From the NCBI GenBank assembly GCA_016187175.1, contig JACPKG010000016.1, positions 1-53,234 of the forward strand: 53,234 nucleotides of DNA, given 5' to 3'. Made by a program: the position numbers and the translations under genes. The DNA is from Candidatus Saccharimonadota bacterium (lineage in GTDB: Bacteria > Patescibacteriota > Saccharimonadia > Saccharimonadales > UBA10212). The stretch's first letter is position 1. The number at the start of each line of letters is the position of its first letter. Shown one piece after another: positions 46,036 through 52,711 of this stretch. A model generated the notes under the pieces. That model was not told the DNA's origin, did no database searches, and was given only the letters and a program-made list of their open reading frames with translations.

Positions 46036-46608
46036 ATGATTTCGAAGCTGGAAGGCAAGGTGGCCGAGAAAATTGGCGAGGTTGTTGTTATTGACTGCGG
46101 CGGGGTAGGTTATGGAGTGCTGGTTCCTTTTGAAGATTTTGGCGCGCTACATAATGGTGAAAAAGCCAAACTTTATATCTACGAGAGTATTCGCGACAAC
46201 GCACACGATTTATTCGGTTTTCGCAACCTTGAGGCTAAGCAACTCTTTGAGCAATTACTAAGTGTTAAGGGCGTAGGACCAAAAATGGCCTTGGCGATTT
46301 TAAGTGTGGCGTCGCTTTCACGCGTTCGGCAAGCAATCGCCGCTGGCGACATAAAATTCCTATCTCAATCAAAGGGTGTAGGCAAACGGGCCGCCGAGCG
46401 GGTAGTGGTCGACCTTAAAGACAAAGTCGGGCTAACAGCCAGCCAAGATGCCACGGAATTCCTAACTACGTCAGCCGACCCCAGTGATGAAGCTCTCCAG
46501 GGGTTAGTAGCTCTGGGTTACTCGGTTGCCGACGCTGCCGAAGCTTTGAAAAAAGTTGATCAAGAACTGCCACCGGCCGAGCGTATTAAACAAGCCCTTA
46601 AATCCTAA
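46036..46608 (+). CDS. ruvA: Holliday junction DNA helicase subunit RuvA
   Basis: MISKLEGKV...VIDCGGVGYGV OB domain, HhH motifs (LLSVKGVGPKMALAIL; KGVGKRAAERVV) and domain III. Confidence 0.9.
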   Translation: MISKLEGKVAEKIGEVVVIDCGGVGYGVLVPFEDFGALHNGEKAKLYIYESIRDNAHDLFGFRNLEAKQLFEQLLSVKGVGPKMALAILSVASLSRVRQAIAAGDIKFLSQSKGVGKRAAERVVVDLKDKVGLTASQDATEFLTTSADPSDEALQGLVALGYSVADAAEALKKVDQELPPAERIKQALKS

Positions 46609-46617
46609 AAGAATGGC

Positions 46618-46851
46618 TTGACATTGAAGCCTGAATCCAGCAGTCCAAGTGTAGACGAACAACATGACTTTATTAATCGTTTTGTGCATGTCAATGGATA
46701 CGGTGGCTACAGCGAGGCTCGGCAGGCTTGGGCTCGCCGGCAGCAATATCTTGATGCAATAAACTCTAAAGGGATGGACGCAGGGACTTATTTGCAACAC
46801 TATCCTGATCCTGATCTTCGTGATGAGTTCCAAAAACTGGAGTTGATATAG
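46618..46851 (+). CDS. doubtful hypothetical ORF (77 aa, TTG start)
   Basis: Track ORF only. No SD or motif. Confidence 0.25.
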   Translation: MTLKPESSSPSVDEQHDFINRFVHVNGYGGYSEARQAWARRQQYLDAINSKGMDAGTYLQHYPDPDLRDEFQKLELI

Positions 46852-46991
46852 GATATCTGAATGAGTTCTTTAGGGTCGCTGGTTTGAAAGAACGAACTTT
46901 GGTGGTCCTTAACTGAACAGGTCTGGAACTACATTGTATCAAGCAAGCCTCTATTACTTGTACCAAGCTACACTGACGGAGTAAGATTGAC

Positions 46992-48890
46992 ATGATGAGG
47001 TTTACAAAGTTTCATATTGAAAACTATAAAGGCATAGACAGCGTTGATGTCGTTTTAGATGCTTATGAGGGCGGTAATGTTCTAACATTGGTGGGGCTTA
47101 ATGAGAGTGGTAAAACCACAGTTTTAGATGGCATTTACTTCTTTCAGAGAGACGAACTACCAGAGTCGAAACGCTTTCAGTTAATCCCAAAGAAGTACGG
47201 CCACAACTTCAGTGGAGATATTTTAACTTCAGCATCAATGGTTCTTGATGACGAGGACGAAAAGAAAATCAAAAAATTTGCCGCAGAACAAGCCTACTTC
47301 CGTATCAATCCTGCTTATAAGATAAAAGAGATAGTTATAAGTAAGAGATATCACTTCAAAGCCTCTACTTACACAGGGTCGTCGTTTAGCTATGGTTTTA
47401 AGATAGTTGGACAAGCACTAAGAGCAAAAGACAAAAAATTTCAAACTCTATCCCTAACAGATCAGAAATATGAAAAAATTGGTAATTATATACACAAAAA
47501 TCTTTGCCCAACCATGATTTATTATCAAAACTTCTTATTTGACTTCCCTCTCAAAATATACCTTGAGAGTTTCGCAAAAGAACCGAAAGGACAGGATATA
47601 TATAGACAGGTTGTCCAAGATATACTTCACTCAATAGATGAAACTCTTGACCTTAAAGAGAATGTACTTAAGCGATTGCAGACTGGCACAGACGAAAGTA
47701 AAAGTGCATTAAATCAAACCATCAATCTTATGGGGAACGCTATAACAACTGAGATTATTGACTCATGGGGAGACATTTTTGATGATGATTGGCAGGGTAA
47801 AGAAATATCTATAGTTGATGGTATAGATCAGATCGAAGAAGAAGTCGAGGTCTCTCCTGCCGTGCCTGCTTCTGGAGATACACCTGCCACTCCAGCTAAA
47901 AAGGAAGTCCGTAATCGACCTGTGCATTATCTTCAGTTTAAGCTCAAAGACGGAACTAATTTGTTTGAGATCGCCGAAAGAAGCCTCGGTTTCAAATGGT
48001 TCTTCGCCTTTCTCCTTTTTACAAAATTCAGATTAAGTAGAATGACAGATCCAGGCGAAACCCTTTTCTTGCTCGATGAGCCTGCATCAAACCTTCACTC
48101 AACTGCACAACAAAAGTTAACCCATGTATTTGAAAAATTAACTAGTCAGAAAAACCCAGCCAAGTTAATTTTTTCAACACATAGCCACCATTTAGTCCGA
48201 TCCGAATGGCTTGAGACAGCTTCTATAGTTCAGAACACAGCAATTGATTATGAACAGTCTGGCATGTCTGCCGACAAAAAAGATACAAAAGTTAAACTGA
48301 CCTCCTATAAGCGTTTTGTGGCTGCTCACCCAAATCAAACTTCTTATTTTCAGCCTATTTTAGACAGTTTGGACTATAAACCAAGTGAACTCGAGTTAGT
48401 GCCAAATATAGTGATCGTTGAGGGCAAGCATGATTTCTATACATTCAAATATATGAATGAGATTATGGGCATTGGTAAAAATGCACCCAATTTATATCCA
48501 GGTAATGGGTGCGGACAAAATGATAGAGTAATTAGGCTTTATGAGGCTTGGGGTAAAAACTATCTTGTGCTACTGGACTCTGATCCCGCAGGTAAAAGTG
48601 CCATTAAGAAATACGCTCAAGAAATTGGTGACTTTGTCGATGGCAAAATATACGGGCTTCAAGATGTTTCCGCTTCTTTTAAAGGAGTGGAGACAGAGAA
48701 ACTATTCTCCGATACAGACGCTTTACTGGTTATTAAGACTCTAGATCCTCAAGCAAAACAGTTTTCTAAAGCTAAGTTTAATGAAGCAATTAAAAATCTT
48801 CTCTTCCAAAAGAAGAAAATTAAACTTTCCAAGACAACTACAAACCGCTTTGAGAAAATATACAAGTTCCTCGCTGAAAAGATAAAATGA
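46992..48890 (+). CDS. OLD-family nuclease: N-terminal ABC-type ATPase fused to a C-terminal TOPRIM domain (candidate anti-phage defence protein)
   Basis: Walker A LVGLNESGKTTVLDG; signature-like ERSLGFKWFFAF; Walker B/D-loop TLFLLDEPASNLH; H-loop FSTHSHHL. TOPRIM Glu (IVIVEGKHDFYTF) and DxD (LVLLDSDPAGKSA). Visibly more A+T-rich than the flanking genes. Confidence 0.8.
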   Translation: MMRFTKFHIENYKGIDSVDVVLDAYEGGNVLTLVGLNESGKTTVLDGIYFFQRDELPESKRFQLIPKKYGHNFSGDILTSASMVLDDEDEKKIKKFAAEQAYFRINPAYKIKEIVISKRYHFKASTYTGSSFSYGFKIVGQALRAKDKKFQTLSLTDQKYEKIGNYIHKNLCPTMIYYQNFLFDFPLKIYLESFAKEPKGQDIYRQVVQDILHSIDETLDLKENVLKRLQTGTDESKSALNQTINLMGNAITTEIIDSWGDIFDDDWQGKEISIVDGIDQIEEEVEVSPAVPASGDTPATPAKKEVRNRPVHYLQFKLKDGTNLFEIAERSLGFKWFFAFLLFTKFRLSRMTDPGETLFLLDEPASNLHSTAQQKLTHVFEKLTSQKNPAKLIFSTHSHHLVRSEWLETASIVQNTAIDYEQSGMSADKKDTKVKLTSYKRFVAAHPNQTSYFQPILDSLDYKPSELELVPNIVIVEGKHDFYTFKYMNEIMGIGKNAPNLYPGNGCGQNDRVIRLYEAWGKNYLVLLDSDPAGKSAIKKYAQEIGDFVDGKIYGLQDVSASFKGVETEKLFSDTDALLVIKTLDPQAKQFSKAKFNEAIKNLLFQKKKIKLSKTTTNRFEKIYKFLAEKIK

Positions 48891-49228
48891 CCTCAAAAAT
48901 AACTCAGCTAAAAGAGTTTTACATTAAGTATTTTCAAGATGTGCCTGTACAAAAATATGCAGCGATGTACATAGGCCGTGATGAAGACACGATAATTAGG
49001 TGGCGACAATCTGATACTAAATTTGCGGAGTCAATACAGAGAGCAAAAGCGGAATGGATCCGCAAAAGACTTCTAGCTACGAAGGCAGAGTTTGCACTAG
49101 AGCGGCTTGAAAAAAATGTGTTTAGCCCAAAAATGCTTGATGAGAGAGATTATAGTGCTGGTATCGTAATTTATCGGCCAGAACGCTACCCTAGAGGATA
49201 TGACGGCCAGGCAAAACAACCTCAATGA
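48887..49228 (+). CDS. small putative HTH DNA-binding protein (terminase-small/transposase-HTH-like), translationally coupled to the OLD gene
   Basis: ATGA start/stop overlap with the OLD gene. YAAMYIGRDEDTIIRWRQSDTKFAESIQRAKAEW resembles phage HTH modules. Confidence 0.55.
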   Translation: MTSKITQLKEFYIKYFQDVPVQKYAAMYIGRDEDTIIRWRQSDTKFAESIQRAKAEWIRKRLLATKAEFALERLEKNVFSPKMLDERDYSAGIVIYRPERYPRGYDGQAKQPQ

Positions 49229-49242
49229 GCTAGTCTAGTCGA

Positions 49243-49785
49243 TCAGAGCCAATTTAGTCTACGACCACGAACTATGTAGACAAGGACAGCCTTTACTATT
49301 TCAATGGCTGCAATACCTATCCCAGCCACAATTAGTGCGTCCTTGGTCGGGTTGGCAGAGTTCTTTAGAGTCTGAAAGACAAATTGAGTTCGATAGGGCT
49401 GGCTCTTAGACTGTATGTATTCATTGATTTCAGCGTCACTGTAGCCGTTGTCTCGAGCAGACTGAATGAATTGATTTAGATTAGGATTTGATAATGCAGA
49501 ATTACAGGCGTTCTTCGCCTTAGTTTCATCTGACGAATAAAGACTGGTCGAGGATTGGGAATAGCTTAACCCGATAATCCCCAAACCACTAAACGAATAG
49601 CTATGGCCGTCAGCACATATTATTTGACTTTTTTGTAAATCGACTGATGAATAGGTTTGATTGCCGCTTGAATATATTGCCCAAGTTATTAAGGCCAATG
49701 CTAGGTAAGCAAAGACATATGCCACCTTCAAGAAGCGGTGCCACCATCGCTCATAGTTTTGTTGATCCAACGCTGCTTTACTCAT
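49243..49785 (-). CDS. hypothetical membrane protein (N- and C-terminal TM helices)
   Basis: Start moved to ATG 49785 (GGGAGG SD 9 nt upstream). No family recognised. Confidence 0.5.
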   Translation of the reverse strand: MSKAALDQQNYERWWHRFLKVAYVFAYLALALITWAIYSSGNQTYSSVDLQKSQIICADGHSYSFSGLGIIGLSYSQSSTSLYSSDETKAKNACNSALSNPNLNQFIQSARDNGYSDAEINEYIQSKSQPYRTQFVFQTLKNSANPTKDALIVAGIGIAAIEIVKAVLVYIVRGRRLNWL

Positions 49786-49808
49786 AAAGGACAACCTCCC
49801 TCTAGGTT

Positions 49809-49911
49809 GTCGAGACCAGCAACAGCTTGCGCCAATTGCGTTCGAGGAAAGTTGCCCATTTCTTGGCGCAAGCTACCTCGATAGGTATAAAAAACCGCTG
49901 CTAGTCTCGAC
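49809..49911. repeat. nested inverted repeats (about 103-nt compound hairpin)
   Basis: Outer arms GTCGAGACCAGCA / TGCTAGTCTCGAC (12 of 13). Inner arms AGCTTGCGCCA (49824-49834) / TGGCGCAAGCT (49864-49874). Confidence 0.55.
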
Positions 49912-50330
49912 AGATATAGCATAGTTCGCTAGAGCAAAAGAAGCAACGAAAAAGGTTCAAAAAATGCTATAATGTAGTTACAACTTATTAAACAGAACTG
50001 CATAAGCGGTCTAATTCGGCAAAGTGCCGAGGAAGGCTGCTTTTTATGTTTAACCCACACAGGAGCAGAAATAATATTTCCTAATGGCGCTGGCAAAAGT
50101 GGCCATGCTACCAAAAAATAGAAACAGTCTTGAGGCTTTAAATACTAACACACAAACACTGTTCAACTTCTTAGTCCTAATAACCGATATTCAGTACCGT
50201 ATTAAGTATGGGCGATCTCTGGAATGGGATAGGGGTAAAGGTTATAGTAAAGATATGAATAGTAGCTTTCCAGATCAGATACCTTCCGTTGACAACGGTC
50301 TGGAAAGCGTTGCTCAACGGAGGATATCTG

Positions 50331-52031
50331 ATGAGCTCTAGCTTTCCCAAGTCTAAATGCTTTGTTTATCTTAGACGCTCACAAGACCGAGAGGATAGAC
50401 AGGCGTATTCGCTTGAAAAACAAGATCAGCAAGTTCGGCAAATCATTACAGATAATAACTATGTAGCTATCCATTTACCGCCAGAAGAAAGGTCGGCCAG
50501 GTACTTAGGTCGTCCGATATTCAATGATATGTTAGAACGCATCGAAAAAGGCGAAGCTAGATATATAGCCGTGTGGCAACTTAGCCGATTAAGCCGCAAT
50601 CCCATAGATGCAGGTAGGATCATCTACATGCTAGACCAAGGTTCTTTATTAGCTATACATACACCCACTAGAACCTACCGCAACACCCCAGATGATAAGG
50701 CATTCTTAGCTATAGAACTTGCGTTTGCTAAAAAGAATAATGATGACCTGAGCGTCCAAGTGAAAGAAAGTTTTGAGCAAAAGCGCAATCATGGTGAATA
50801 TCCTGGTCCTGCACCGCTCGGGTATTACAACGCTATTATAAGTCCAGGCCATCGTAACATAGTGCCTCATCAAGAAAACGCACAAAAAATTATTAGGCTT
50901 TTTCAAAAAGCTGCCAGCGAATGCTATACACTTCACGATATTTGGCTTGAGACAGAAAAGCTAGGTTTGCGGTCCAAAAATGGCTTGCCTCTAGCGAAAC
51001 AAACTGTGGTTGGCATTTTGAAAAACAGAGTTTATACAGGCGTTTTTAAGTATGGTAGCCCCGAGTATCATCAAGGAGCATATGAGCCCCTGATTAGTAT
51101 TGAGATTTATAATAAAGTGCAACAAGTTATGGGCTGGGCGCATAAGCGTAATGTACCCCATACCACAGCAGGACGATCATATCCTTATAAGGGCCTACTG
51201 CTTTGTGGCACATGCAATTTCAACATAACAGCCTATACTAAGCCAAAAACCCTATCCAATGGCTCAGAAGCATATTATGAGTTTTATACCTGCACCAAAA
51301 AGAGCAAGACAGTTAAGTGCACTGAGTCTCAGATCTCTGCTAAAGAATTGGAAGAAGCGATCAAGTCCAAAATGTCAGAGTTCGAAATAAGTGAAGAAGA
51401 CGGTAAGACTTGCCTGCGGTTAATTGAGGGGCTTTTTGACAGCCACATAAAAAATCAGCAACGATACCGTGAAATATGGGAAAAAGACCGTAGAGACGCA
51501 AAAAAAGCACTTGAGGTGCTTGATGAAAAGCTTGAAACAGGCGTTATCGAAGATGAAAGATATAAGAGCCGTAGTAATCGCCATCGGGCGGTGCTGGCTA
51601 GAACTACGCAACTGCTTGAAAGTTCTTATCAAGACGCCGAACGCTGGCTAGAACTAGCAACGGAGGTATTTTCAAGTGTTACTAACCTAGGTGTAGTCTT
51701 TGAACAAGCTGAGGATACAGAACGGCGTGAACTTATGAAGTATTTAGGTTTGAACTGGACTTTAAGTGATAGAAAAGTGGCTCTAACACCTAGAGAACCA
51801 CTACATTTGTTACATATCAGCAATCGAAATCAATCTTGGCGGGGCGGGCAGGATTCGAACCTGCGGCCAATCGGTTATGAGCCGACTGCTCTAACCACTG
51901 AGCTACCGCCCCTCGTCGTCCGCCTAGGCGGACTCCTCTTCAATTTTACAAGTTCTGCTACGCACGACCTTGTAAAATTGGTAAAAGAACAGTATAAACC
52001 CAAGTATAACAGATGTATGAGATATAATTAG
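50331..52031 (+). CDS. large serine recombinase (resolvase domain, recombinase domain, zinc ribbon, coiled coil); the 3' end of the ORF runs antisense through tRNA-Met
   Basis: CFVYLRRSQDREDRQAYSLEKQ (catalytic Ser region), IAVWQLSRLSRN, YPGPAPLGY, and the Cys cluster CGTCNFNI...YTCTKKSKTVKC. No stop until 52031, although recognisable recombinase sequence ends near 51830. Confidence 0.8.
   Translation: MSSSFPKSKCFVYLRRSQDREDRQAYSLEKQDQQVRQIITDNNYVAIHLPPEERSARYLGRPIFNDMLERIEKGEARYIAVWQLSRLSRNPIDAGRIIYMLDQGSLLAIHTPTRTYRNTPDDKAFLAIELAFAKKNNDDLSVQVKESFEQKRNHGEYPGPAPLGYYNAIISPGHRNIVPHQENAQKIIRLFQKAASECYTLHDIWLETEKLGLRSKNGLPLAKQTVVGILKNRVYTGVFKYGSPEYHQGAYEPLISIEIYNKVQQVMGWAHKRNVPHTTAGRSYPYKGLLLCGTCNFNITAYTKPKTLSNGSEAYYEFYTCTKKSKTVKCTESQISAKELEEAIKSKMSEFEISEEDGKTCLRLIEGLFDSHIKNQQRYREIWEKDRRDAKKALEVLDEKLETGVIEDERYKSRSNRHRAVLARTTQLLESSYQDAERWLELATEVFSSVTNLGVVFEQAEDTERRELMKYLGLNWTLSDRKVALTPREPLHLLHISNRNQSWRGGQDSNLRPIGYEPTALTTELPPLVVRLGGLLFNFTSSATHDLVKLVKEQYKPKYNRCMRYN
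51837..51912 (-). tRNA. tRNA with CAT anticodon (elongator Met or Ile2), CCA encoded
   Basis: Hand-folded from the reverse complement: GGGGCGG-TA-GCTC-AGTGGTTA-GAGC-A-GTCGG-CTCATAA-CCGAT-TGGCC-GCAGG-TTCGAAT-CCTGC-CCGCCCC-G-CCA. 76 nt. Confidence 0.85.
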
Positions 52032-52034
52032 GGG

Positions 52035-52490
52035 GTGCTGCAAAGAGTAAAAAACCTTTGGAATCATAGACGCGTAAAACAACTTACCGATCCGCGAAAC
52101 ATCGGCCTTTATATTTTTTTGATTGTGGTACTGGCGATTTCATGGAGCGCAGTCAAGACGGTCCAGACTAATTATGAATTGCAAAAACAAATCTCAACCC
52201 TAAAGCAACAAAACGAAGTTCTTAAACTGCAGAACCAAAATACCGACCTGCAGAACAAATACTTACAGACTGATCAGTATTTAGAACTGGCCGCCCGACA
52301 AGACCTTGGCCTGGCCGCTCCCGGTGAACAAGTTATGCTGATATCCAAAGACGCGGCTCTGAAATACGTTGATCAAAGCCTGGTTCCTAAAACCGAGTTT
52401 GCCAGCCAGGAAGACAAACGCTCCGGATACGCCAAAAACTTTGAAGCCTGGCGTAATTTCCTACTAGGCCGCCAACTCCGCCAAGATTGA
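52035..52490 (+). CDS. septum formation initiator (FtsB/DivIC-like)
   Basis: One TM helix followed by a Gln/Leu-rich coiled coil (YELQKQISTLKQQNEVLKLQNQNTDLQNKYL) and ELAARQDLGLAAPGEQV. GTG start uncertain. Confidence 0.7.
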   Translation: MLQRVKNLWNHRRVKQLTDPRNIGLYIFLIVVLAISWSAVKTVQTNYELQKQISTLKQQNEVLKLQNQNTDLQNKYLQTDQYLELAARQDLGLAAPGEQVMLISKDAALKYVDQSLVPKTEFASQEDKRSGYAKNFEAWRNFLLGRQLRQD

Positions 52491-52603
52491 CATTTCTACC
52501 CCTGTTTGCTAGTATTTTATAAGCCTAATTTGGCATTTCCTTGCCACCTTCTTTGCCGTCCCTCGACAAGCTCGGGACGATAAAGTTTGCAGGCAAACTT
52601 TAT

Positions 52604-52678
52604 CGCGGGGTGGAGCAGTAGTAGCTCGCGTGGCTCATAACCACGAGGTCGCAGGTGCAAATCCTGCCCCCGCTACCA
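52604..52678 (+). tRNA. initiator tRNA-fMet (CAT), CCA encoded, atypical T-loop
   Basis: CGCGGGG-TG-GAGC-AGTAGTA-GCTC-G-CGTGG-CTCATAA-CCACG-AGGTC-GCAGG-TGCAAAT-CCTGC-CCCCGCT-A-CCA. 1:72 mismatch and close to E. coli tRNAfMet as I recall it. The T-loop reads TGC instead of the usual TTC. Confidence 0.8.
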
Positions 52679-52687
52679 TGAAAAGCG

Positions 52688-52711
52688 CCCGACGCCAGGT
52701 CGGGTGTTTTT
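52688..52711 (+). terminator. rho-independent terminator after tRNA-fMet
   Basis: CCCGAC-gccag-GTCGGG followed by TGTTTTT. Confidence 0.7.

Follow-up and report, generated by a model that had tools for sequence, protein, structure and literature searches.

The question raised by this locus is whether an OLD nuclease gene and the small HTH gene that overlaps its 3' end form a dedicated defence module, or whether they stand side by side for another reason. The two genes lie in a stretch of 53,234 nt (hereafter the window; GCA_016187175.1, contig JACPKG010000016.1, forward strand) from Candidatus Saccharimonadota bacterium (UBA10212), and both ORFs could be placed exactly:

46992 to 48890, plus strand: OLD-family ABC ATPase with a TOPRIM nuclease domain, 632 aa, most likely a class-1-like cargo gene (Pfam, PADLOC, motifs, AF2, Foldseek)
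48887 to 49228, plus strand: 113-aa helical HTH protein encoded by a backbone gene of the element and assigned to a family of phage small terminases (TerS) (PHROG, neighbourhoods, AF2)

As the original prediction had stated, the pair is joined by an ATGA overlap: within gataaaATGAcctc, the ATG of the 113-aa ORF (48887-48889) overlaps the TGA of the 632-aa ORF (48888-48890). Both were regarded as real genes rather than chance ORFs because each is a member of a large and conserved family (2351 matches for the 632-aa ORF and 170 for the 113-aa ORF). The predicted A+T-richer stretch next to a serine recombinase and a tRNA was also recovered, with a GC content of 0.37-0.38 at 47-49 kb vs. approximately 0.46 in the flanks, a recombinase gene at 50289-52031 and a tRNA-Met gene, and the proposed mobile, defence-island context held. 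The flanking genes encode ComEC, YebC, peptidase S51, RuvC, RuvA and DivIC. A promoter and terminator scan of the element gave a signal no higher than the shuffled expectation.

The 632-aa protein is a divergent but recognisable OLD-family ABC-ATPase/TOPRIM nuclease. Its Walker A (G35, K41 and T42 in GLNESGKTT), Walker B (D362 and E363 in LLDEP) and H-loop (H397/H400 in STHSHH) residues, as well as the TOPRIM residues E477 (IVIVEGKHD), D481 and D529/D531 (LLDSDPAG), were all invariant in 34 homologues, which bears out the motifs and the family identity initially read from the sequence. In line with this, the Pfam and PADLOC searches suggested along with that reading upheld the OLD identity. 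The protein matched AAA_15 (2.7e-20), AAA_21 (4e-15) and the PADLOC Old model (3.5e-17, residues 351-541), and the best ATPase-domain score came from the PADLOC AriA model, which covers residues 2-402 only. PF20469, the OLD TOPRIM family, remained sub-threshold (E=0.0024; 18.8 bits, cut-off 23.2) and matched 7 of the 34 homologues (best 9e-6). We nevertheless accepted the TOPRIM assignment because of the invariant motifs, these homologue matches and the structural match. With the AF2 model (pLDDT 85.9), the top Foldseek match was the Thermus OLD structure 6P74 (E 1.7e-14, full-length alignment), followed by GajA, and the retron Eco8 structure was also among the top matches; identity to solved or modelled OLD proteins in the structural alignments was 12-14%. 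As read from the model itself, approximately 50 residues with one helix-strand-helix unit separate E477 from the DxD motif, the part of TOPRIM inspected for the helical insert of class 2. A single-sequence search of the PDB gave marginal matches only, so that profile and structure searches were needed, and tblastn of the OLD protein against 50,697 GenBank phage records returned no match.

The surroundings of the pair were delimited with the help of an empty-site allele. A 72-nt contig present in three groundwater metagenome runs joins position 46891 to 51834, with GCAGG in between, and skips 46892-51833; on the basis of this allele, the region was defined as a 4.9-kb element that is present or absent. 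In the three runs, read depths were 20.3, 22.1 and 7.3 at the joint, 28-38, 37-48 and 6 over the element, and 54.8, 72.7 and 9.2 in the left flank, with the empty-site and element depths adding up to the flank depth. The element, its ends and the two tRNA-Met genes are as follows:

46892 to 51839, no strand: whole integrative element, approximately 4.94 kb, present or absent in the natural population (empty-site contig, depths, GC)
46899 to 46902, no strand: left junction (attL), TTGG, also found at the right junction (51836-51839); crossover resolved to about 10 nt at best
51837 to 51912, minus strand: tRNA-Met (CAT), the integration target (ARAGORN; Rfam tRNA, 76.6 bits)
52604 to 52678, plus strand: second tRNA-Met (tRNA scan)

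Between the empty-site allele and the occupied junctions, a patch of 7 nt differs, so that the allele is not their exact reciprocal product; the junction flanks CTTTGGTGGTCC and TCTTGGCGGGGC are partly alike. The 3' CCA end of tRNA-Met (51837-51839) lies at the right junction, and no direct repeat of the tRNA-Met 3' end of at least 9 nt was found at the left border, so the left boundary was taken from the empty-site contig together with the conserved recombinase tail. Among the relatives, plausible end repeats of 10-11 nt were detected in two loci only (L006 and L015). A step in depth at 49232-49261 in run X2 (28 vs. 38) was considered as a sign of a cargo-less variant and rejected, as the break coincides with Nextera adapter fragments. 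Neither a circular nor an encapsidated form was seen in the contigs, and a search of the same groundwater runs for a related phage (the TerS-TerL-portal region of L026) gave nothing at 80% identity or above.

Three further ORFs, one of them split by the integration, complete the element:

50289 to 52031, plus strand: large serine recombinase (Pfam Resolvase 5e-16, Recombinase 4e-10 and Zn_ribbon_recom 9e-8; PHROG 95 integrase 6e-64)
46903 to 46995, plus strand: detached 3' end of the recombinase gene, its last 30 codons in the circularised element (WSLTEQVWNYIVSS..., from in-silico joining)
50084 to 50341, plus strand: conserved small ORF of 85 aa, overlapping the recombinase start (homologues at the same position in L003, L005 and L006; 16 invariant columns)
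49243 to 49794, minus strand: orphan ORF of 183 aa with hydrophobic N- and C-terminal segments, inside the element (ORF call)

All three Pfam domains of large serine recombinases scored above threshold. In the integrated state, the recombinase ORF runs antisense through tRNA-Met to 52031, and its element-borne part ends at approximately 51839. Joining 51839 to 46903 in silico yielded a recombinase ORF of 547 aa, compared with 580 aa in the integrated form, and the stop codon of its detached tail (TGA, 46993-46995) overlaps the ATG of the OLD gene. L003, L006 and L013 also encode this tail motif at their left ends, and the recombinase is 59-73% identical to those of L003, L005 and L006. Furthermore, the recombinase 3' end overlaps the 3' end of a tRNA or tmRNA gene in nine related loci as well as in the window (tRNA-Met, tRNA-Asp, tRNA-Glu and tmRNA). 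The 85-aa ORF had no Pfam match and is a candidate excision or regulatory factor. The 183-aa ORF gave no significant family match in Pfam, PADLOC or PHROG; its equation with an ORF of the same size at the same position in L006 was rejected, as the two are unrelated. No replication-related domain, and hence no replication module of the satellite type, was found in the five element ORFs, and the element has no recognisable repressor or excisionase gene.

Profile matches and gene neighbourhoods place the family of the 113-aa protein among the phage small terminases. The protein itself matched PHROG 4044 (TerS) at 1.5e-4, and PHROG TerS profiles matched 19 of 29 family members at 1e-3 or better (best 3.2e-7). 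In approximately 11 phage contigs (L026/27, L029, L031-35, L037, L041, L042 and L044), its homologues abut or overlap the large terminase gene, which is recognisable by Terminase_3/_3C/_6N/_6C domains and is followed by a portal gene; the members in this position are 40-65% identical and have no recombinase in view. The first 80 residues, modelled by AF2 with a pLDDT above 90, form a compact HTH plus a long helix with 19 invariant columns. With terminase small subunits (PHROG 4044/309; PaP3, NV1, Sf6 and phBC6A51 2AO9), the protein shares the N-terminal HTH, the long helix and the disordered tail, the PHROG match and the location of its relatives directly upstream of a large terminase. In contrast to them, the copy in the window has no large terminase gene beside it, the Foldseek matches of its model, although headed by small terminases, were all non-significant (E > 0.2), searches of Pfam, NCBIfam and PADLOC gave no match, and it has no Pfam family. 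Further, tblastn of the 113-aa protein against the 50,697 GenBank phage records was negative, and a scan of genome contigs for the small protein returned only five loci.

In approximately 13 chromosomal loci, a large serine recombinase gene follows the small gene at a distance of 0.3-3 kb, within the same minimal, tightly packed architecture of 3-6 kb and at four different tRNA/tmRNA targets. This constant linkage, together with the very strong conservation of the N-terminal 80 residues and the lack of large terminase, capsid and replication genes in the element, would also suit a recombination directionality factor (RDF, or excisionase) or a transcriptional regulator that was recruited from a TerS-like HTH fold and works within the same element. 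RDFs of serine integrases are structurally diverse, which counts in favour of such a role. However, the members found in phage contigs are located where TerS genes canonically stand, with an overlap onto the large terminase gene and no recombinase in view, and as a candidate RDF the 85-aa ORF at the start of the recombinase gene is better placed. We therefore regard an RDF or regulator role of the 113-aa protein as unlikely.

A decayed, immobile prophage remnant, in which an integrase, a small terminase and the OLD gene as a moron were kept by chance, would explain why replication and structural genes, a circular form in the contigs and a clean direct repeat at the element ends were not found. 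Such a remnant is very unlikely, however, given that the same 3-6 kb architecture recurs in the 13 loci at the four kinds of target, that the recombinase ORF is intact and its attP-spanning tail conserved in four elements, and that occupied and empty alleles with sharp boundaries coexist in the same populations.

The slot directly upstream of the small gene varies in content from locus to locus. It holds OLD in the window and in L003, a KAP NTPase resembling PifA/QatA in L006 and L013, a PDC-S73 Mrr-nSTAND3 protein in L025 (3e-152), a Schlafen AlbA_2 protein in L012, a HamB/PDC-M23B helicase in L017 (1e-107), a PDC-S02 nuclease in L020 and SocA/Panacea in L005 and L055. An OLD gene was found anywhere in the locus in only one (L003) of about 40 loci with homologues of the small protein, the window aside. 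Conversely, the small gene accompanies OLD homologues in 2 of 16 independent contexts (the window and L003) and is absent from the remaining 14, the sample of OLD neighbourhoods being small. In L001/L002, which encode the closest homologue of the OLD protein (74% identity), the next gene is a convergent one for a PIN-domain protein, and the small gene is missing; elsewhere, the OLD homologue is overlapped by an unrelated 108-aa ORF (L046) or neighboured by a 277-aa ORF (L047/48) or a convergent 82-aa ORF (L049-51). The possibility that the 108-aa ORF of L046 is a disguised homologue of the small protein was rejected, since the sequences are unrelated. Beside OLD in ten viral contigs (L057-L066), no homologue of the small gene was found.

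These counts did not confirm the dedicated HTH partner, and with it the new two-gene class of OLD systems, put forward in the original prediction, which had itself named a lack of co-occurrence elsewhere, together with clustering of the OLD protein among stand-alone class 1 enzymes, as the outcome that would speak against it; in essence, this outcome was obtained. The small gene rarely stands beside OLD in other loci, and its constant partners are the large terminase in phages and the large serine recombinase in islands. In L003, OLD and the small gene occur in the same order with a 6-nt gap (43% and 68% identity to the window, respectively), yet this locus belongs to the same element family, and its recombinase, 59% identical, and its shared tail motif explain the repeated arrangement by common ancestry; a functional link in this sub-lineage retains a small probability. 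Likewise, ATGA-type coupling joins the small gene to unrelated cargo, namely the KAP NTPase (L006/L013) and Mrr-nSTAND3 (L025) genes, so the overlap reflects tight packing of the element rather than a link specific to OLD. A fifth OLD class, in which the HTH protein would be sensor, regulator or antitoxin of the nuclease, is thus highly improbable: the ATGA overlap, the L003 arrangement and the lack of any other known OLD partner nearby speak for it, but KAP, STAND and Schlafen genes are coupled to the small gene just as closely, its TerS family adjoins the large terminase in phages, and most OLD contexts, that of the 74%-identical homologue included, lack it. As a practical lesson, translational coupling through ATGA is no evidence of a functional pair if the downstream gene is part of a mobile-element backbone.

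Class 1 OLD systems consist of a single gene without a conserved adjoining partner (PMC10568477) and include P2 Old, Thermus scotoductus OLD (TsOLD; PDB 6P74) and Vibrio cholerae Vc OLD (PMC10568477; PMC12392090). The OLD of the window resembles them in that its neighbours differ among homologue contexts, 14 of 16 of which lack the small gene, in its best fold match (6P74) and in its location on a mobile element, P2 old occupying a prophage hotspot of variable defence genes (PMC10568477; PMC12392090). It differs from class 1 in its length (632 aa vs. 528 aa in TsOLD), in its very low sequence similarity (12-14% identity), in the sub-threshold Pfam OLD TOPRIM match and in its Patescibacteria host, and its activity is putative. 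The ATPase fold is common to GajA of Gabija, retron OLD and AriA of PARIS, and the fused TOPRIM domain to GajA and retron OLD, which are among the top Foldseek matches. Unlike these systems, however, the OLD of the window lacks the UvrD-like helicase of Gabija (class 2), the reverse transcriptase and ncRNA of retrons (class 3) and the separate AriB of PARIS (class 4). Within 5 kb, ORF lists and domain searches revealed neither a helicase nor a reverse transcriptase nor a separate TOPRIM gene, a single ORF encodes both ATPase and TOPRIM, and Rfam found only tRNAs, and no retron or other ncRNA, over 46500-52700. The predicted absence of GajB, reverse transcriptase and AriB partners was therefore correct, while the placement outside the four described OLD classes was not supported: the protein is most likely an ordinary stand-alone, class-1-like nuclease.

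Overall, we consider it probable that the OLD is of a stand-alone, class-1-like type and forms the exchangeable cargo of a satellite-like integrative element in a Patescibacteria genome. The identities of the genes, the boundaries of the element, its presence/absence polymorphism, the changing cargo and the missing association of OLD with the TerS-like gene are direct results, whereas the defence activity of OLD by itself and the packaging role of the TerS-like protein are inferred. The region 46892-51839 is a compact integrative mobile element of approximately 4.9 kb at the tRNA-Met 3' end, with a backbone comprising the recombinase gene that spans the attachment site, the conserved small ORF upstream of the recombinase and the 113-aa TerS-family protein. 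The cargo slot, flanked by the attachment site and the TerS-like gene, is filled with anti-phage genes that vary among copies, here with a single OLD. This OLD would act alone, like class 1, as an ATP-binding dimer with a putative defence activity; its predicted TOPRIM site (E477, D481, D529 and D531) would nick or degrade DNA by two-metal catalysis, and phage genome replication would be blocked or the infected cell killed. In the circular form, the genes would be chained from recombinase stop to OLD start and then from OLD stop to TerS-like start, with the ATGA overlap as operon-like packing and no protein partnership. The most likely beneficiary of the TerS-like protein is the element itself, and among its possible uses we favour the redirection of helper phage packaging to element DNA, as in PICI-type satellites; for such a packaging role, the chances appear somewhat below even. 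A more tentative proposal is that these loci may belong to a hitherto undescribed family of Patescibacteria elements that resemble phage satellites and are minimal in size (3-6 kb), each with a large serine recombinase whose gene is divided upon integration, a mimic of the small terminase that takes over the packaging of a helper phage and a single anti-phage slot whose cargo is translationally chained to both. The slot contents counted under this proposal are OLD, KAP NTPase, STAND, Schlafen, a Hachiman-type helicase or a toxin-antitoxin.

The element was compared with PICIs/SaPIs, P4-like satellites, marine VEIMEs (PMC9618062) and PICMIs (PMC10803314). Similarly to these phage satellites, it is small and site-specifically integrated, encodes an integrase and a phage-close TerS homologue, and houses anti-phage genes in a single variable locus. 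Site-specific integration and discrete ends are seen in the empty site of the three runs, the tRNA-Met target and the attP-spanning tail. PICMIs, with about six genes, are similarly minimal in size and gene number, and their iolg is a small ORF that overlaps the int gene, as does the small ORF at the recombinase start here (PMC10803314). In contrast, the element has a large serine recombinase gene spanning attP instead of a tyrosine integrase gene, and lacks primase/replication, AlpA/repressor and capsid-remodelling genes as well as a known helper phage; classical satellites carry replication, repressor and excisionase genes, of which no recognisable ones are present here. The literature searched describes no satellites from the host phylum.

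As a defence system, this OLD is ordinary, and the more interesting find is the family of elements that carries it. The element could offer a compact serine integrase/att system, and the TerS-like gene and the recombinase tail would be a marker pair for mining new defence genes of Patescibacteria. These bacteria have tiny genomes and few CRISPR systems, and to our knowledge almost no mobile elements or satellites have been described from them. If the satellite-like reading is true, the family would be the first one of satellites, and a defence-gene shuttle, in ultra-small CPR bacteria, and the way in which Patescibacteria acquire and exchange immunity would be explained by a recurrent serine-integrase/TerS-like element of 3-6 kb in which single defence genes are swapped.

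An OLD-family ATPase-TOPRIM nuclease and a small HTH-like protein of 113 aa had been proposed to form a two-gene defence module at 46992-49228. The coordinates of both open reading frames (ORFs) proved exact, and at their junction, gataaaATGAcctc, the downstream ATG and the upstream TGA share a four-base overlap. Their anticipated setting was also recovered: GC content was 0.37-0.38 over 47-49 kb compared to about 0.46 on either side, and a serine recombinase with three Pfam domains and tRNA genes were found nearby. The features concerned are as follows.

46992..48890, plus strand: 632-aa OLD protein
48887..49228, plus strand: 113-aa protein, hereafter TerS-like (small-terminase-like)
49243-49794, minus strand: 183-aa orphan ORF that converges on the TerS-like gene and has hydrophobic segments at its N- and C-terminus
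50084-50341: 85-aa ORF, overlapping the recombinase start
50289..52031, plus strand: large serine recombinase (Pfam Resolvase, Recombinase, Zn_ribbon_recom)
51837-51912, minus strand: tRNA-Met (CAT), crossed antisense by the 3' end of the recombinase ORF
52604-52678, plus strand: second tRNA-Met (CAT)

The assignment of the 632-aa protein to the OLD family was sound. Residues 2-402 matched Pfam AAA_15 (2.7e-20) and AAA_21 (4e-15), the generic AriA model was the top PADLOC match spanning the full ATPase, and the P2-type Old model of PADLOC matched residues 351-541, including the TOPRIM core (3.5e-17). The OLD TOPRIM model of Pfam, also expected to match, remained below threshold (E 0.0024) and was significant in 7 of 34 homologues (best 9e-6). 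In an alignment of these homologues (42-74% identity), all ATPase and TOPRIM motifs quoted in the original prediction were invariant, as were D481, G534, E569 and K593. An AlphaFold model built from this alignment was confident (mean pLDDT 85.9), and its top full-length PDB match was 6P74, the Thermus scotoductus class 1 OLD (E 1.7e-14), followed by GajA and retron OLD/ATPase structures; a sequence profile also ranked 6P74 first (2e-8). The protein is thus an OLD-family ATPase-TOPRIM enzyme with an intact catalytic set.

As had been stated, neither a helicase, a reverse transcriptase nor a separate TOPRIM gene was present near OLD, and an Rfam scan of its surroundings returned tRNAs only. The pairing had further been placed outside the four described OLD classes. 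The OLD protein has the defining feature of class 1, a single gene, and lacks those of classes 2 (Gabija), 3 (retron) and 4 (PARIS); it is a divergent new member of an already known single-gene kind.

The reading of OLD and the 113-aa protein as a two-gene module was not supported. The genes next to OLD relatives vary: a convergent PIN_12 gene comes after the closest homologue (74%, L001/L002), an unrelated overlapping 108-aa ORF after that in L046, a 277-aa ORF after that in L047/48 and a convergent 82-aa ORF after those in L049-51. Ten IMG/VR contigs carrying OLD relatives contained no homologue of the small gene. Among the best 120 matches per family, OLD and small-protein contigs coincided in length only for the window and L003 (79,865 bp), the sole other small-gene locus with an OLD gene. 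OLD has no conserved partner. The 47%-identical OLD of L046 (1-7113) lies in a different mobile element with a serine recombinase, a DnaG-type zinc-ribbon primase-like gene, HTH_17 and DUF5659.

The 113-aa protein matched nothing in Pfam, NCBIfam or PADLOC. Its 170 homologues are mostly unnamed proteins from Saccharibacteria and Paceibacteria metagenome bins; its N-terminal 80 residues are strikingly conserved (19 invariant columns among 29 sequences), and four high-confidence helices plus a disordered tail are predicted. PHROG profiles would place it with terminase small subunits: it matched phrog_4044 at 1.5e-4, as did 19 of the 29 relatives (best 3.2e-7), and five of them matched phrog_309. 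In a Foldseek search with the model, small terminases and the TerS-like 2AO9 ranked top, none significantly.

Small-gene loci were collected from species-representative genomes, JGI metagenomes and IMG/VR, complemented by exact look-up; each was searched with the window's proteins, and all neighbouring ORFs were clustered. Two contexts predominated. The first was seen in about 11 phage contigs: a 390-520-aa gene with large-terminase domains (Terminase_3/_3C/_6N/_6C) adjoins or overlaps the small gene, and a portal gene comes next; by position, the small gene is the small terminase there. The second comprises 13 chromosomal loci, the window among them, where a large serine recombinase follows the small gene at a distance of 0.3-3 kb and no large terminase was found. 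In the window and nine scanned related loci, the recombinase gene and an opposite-strand tRNA-Met, -Asp, -Glu or tmRNA gene overlap at their 3' ends. In a rough clustering, copies of the island type (55-75% identity to that of the window) were separated from those of the phage type (38-60%). With a recombinase 59% identical to that of the window, L003 is a member of this island family. For some chromosomal copies, the 4 kb downstream contain no serine recombinase (L014/L016 7995-8357, L018 6412-6789, L024 7998-8366, L054 4982-5359); these copies may represent other element types or remnants.

Across the island-type loci the small gene is constant and the gene just upstream varies; the latter is usually defence-like and its end is often overlapped by the small gene start. 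The following cargo was found.

L006 5338-7968 and L013 2042-4672: 876-aa KAP NTPase (PADLOC PifA 4e-24, QatA 1e-19)
L025 5722-7995: 757-aa Mrr_cat + nSTAND3 protein with ATGA-type overlap (PDC-S73 3e-152)
L012 3961-5196: Schlafen AlbA_2 protein (Pfam)
L017 221-2764: HamB/PDC-M23B-like helicase (1e-107) plus a 172-aa ORF
L020 1228-2148: MrcB_N/NucS-type nuclease (PDC-S02 1e-46)
L005 27-623 and L055 4973-5900: pairs of SocA/Panacea genes (Pfam)

L015 appears to carry no cargo. L003 (216 aa), L007 (219 aa) and L019 (385 aa) contain unannotated cargo ORFs that might encode unknown defence functions.

The window sequence was also found in public groundwater metagenome runs. In three of them (X2-X4), a 72-nt contig links 46891 to 51834 via GCAGG, skipping 4942 bp; run X1 contained the occupied form only. 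In X2 and X3, empty and occupied depths sum roughly to the flank depth.

Sequencing depth in the runs with an empty site (joint; element; left flank)
X2: 20.3; 28-38; 54.8
X3: 22.1; 37-48; 72.7
X4: 7.3; about 6; 9.2

Logan contigs in X2 and X3 also end at 49232, 47450, 50656, 51811 and 51896; these breaks carry the Nextera adapter CTGTCTCTTATACACATCT and are technical, not biological variants. The empty-site allele reads GCAGGTC compared to ACGAACT in the occupied form (46892-46898; equal length, six of seven positions differing, all transitions) and has one further mismatch in 51834-51840, and so departs from what an exact reciprocal of attL/attR would read. Both junctions contain TTGG (46899-46902 and 51836-51839), the right copy taking in the CCA end of tRNA-Met.

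Joining 51839 to 46903 in silico yielded a 547-aa recombinase. The left end of the element (46903-46995) supplies the final 30 residues of this protein (WSLTEQVWNYIVSS...), and its stop codon, TGA (46993-95), overlaps the OLD ATG. The integrated ORF instead encodes 580 aa and runs antisense through tRNA-Met to 52031; integration thus swaps the recombinase C-terminus. The tail motif LW[RW]..E.VWN[YF] also occurs directly upstream of the cargo at the left ends of L003 (~7263), L006 (~5288) and L013 (~1992), which independently fixes the left boundary and shows that attP falls within the recombinase gene. Together with the empty-site contig, the tail defines the element as 46892-51839, in the order recombinase tail, OLD, TerS-like gene, 183-aa orphan, 85-aa ORF and recombinase. 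OLD is carried in the cargo slot of this present/absent integrative element. In L006, a same-length ORF of unrelated sequence occupies the place of the 183-aa orphan.

Outside the element, the flanks are housekeeping genes (ComEC, YebC, peptidase S51, RuvC and RuvA on the left, DivIC on the right). The divIC-like gene is bracketed by the two divergent tRNA-Met (CAT) genes, of which the left one alone is the integration site; divIC-like homologues also lie a few kb from the TerS-like gene in L004, L014/L016 and L018. Relatives alone point to the host lineage: the named small-protein loci are Saccharibacteria or Saccharimonadales bins, and DivIC, YebC and RuvC are 41-67% identical to counterparts in other small-protein loci, of which just L004 is a named Saccharibacteria bin. 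Between ruvA and the element, a 77-aa ORF (46618-46851) had no family match and no homologue in any fetched locus.

As established for class 1 enzymes, which are single-gene ATP-dependent nickases/exonucleases (PMC10568477; PMC12392090), OLD would act alone, blocking phage DNA replication or aborting infection. For the 113-aa protein we favour packaging piracy modelled on SaPI/PICI-type satellites, in which a phage-like TerS would steer the terminase of a helper phage to the element, as proposed for marine VEIMEs (PMC9618062). Alternatively, it may serve the serine recombinase, as its directionality factor or as its regulator. A second candidate for an excision/directionality role is the 85-aa ORF, by analogy with iolg of PICMI (PMC10803314); its counterparts in L003, L005 and L006 share 16 invariant columns with it, and it had no family match.

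The element resembles P4, PICI and PICMI, minimal satellites with defence hotspots. Unlike these, it relies on a large serine recombinase, the gene for which is split on integration, has no replication or repressor gene and resides in Patescibacteria, for which no satellite was described in the literature searched. It was therefore not filed as a satellite: its way of working is that of a hitcher-type defence island, and it is called satellite-like only. The carrier family is a variant, itself new, of known defence-carrying integrative/satellite-like elements, and it is this family, rather than OLD, that is worth following up.
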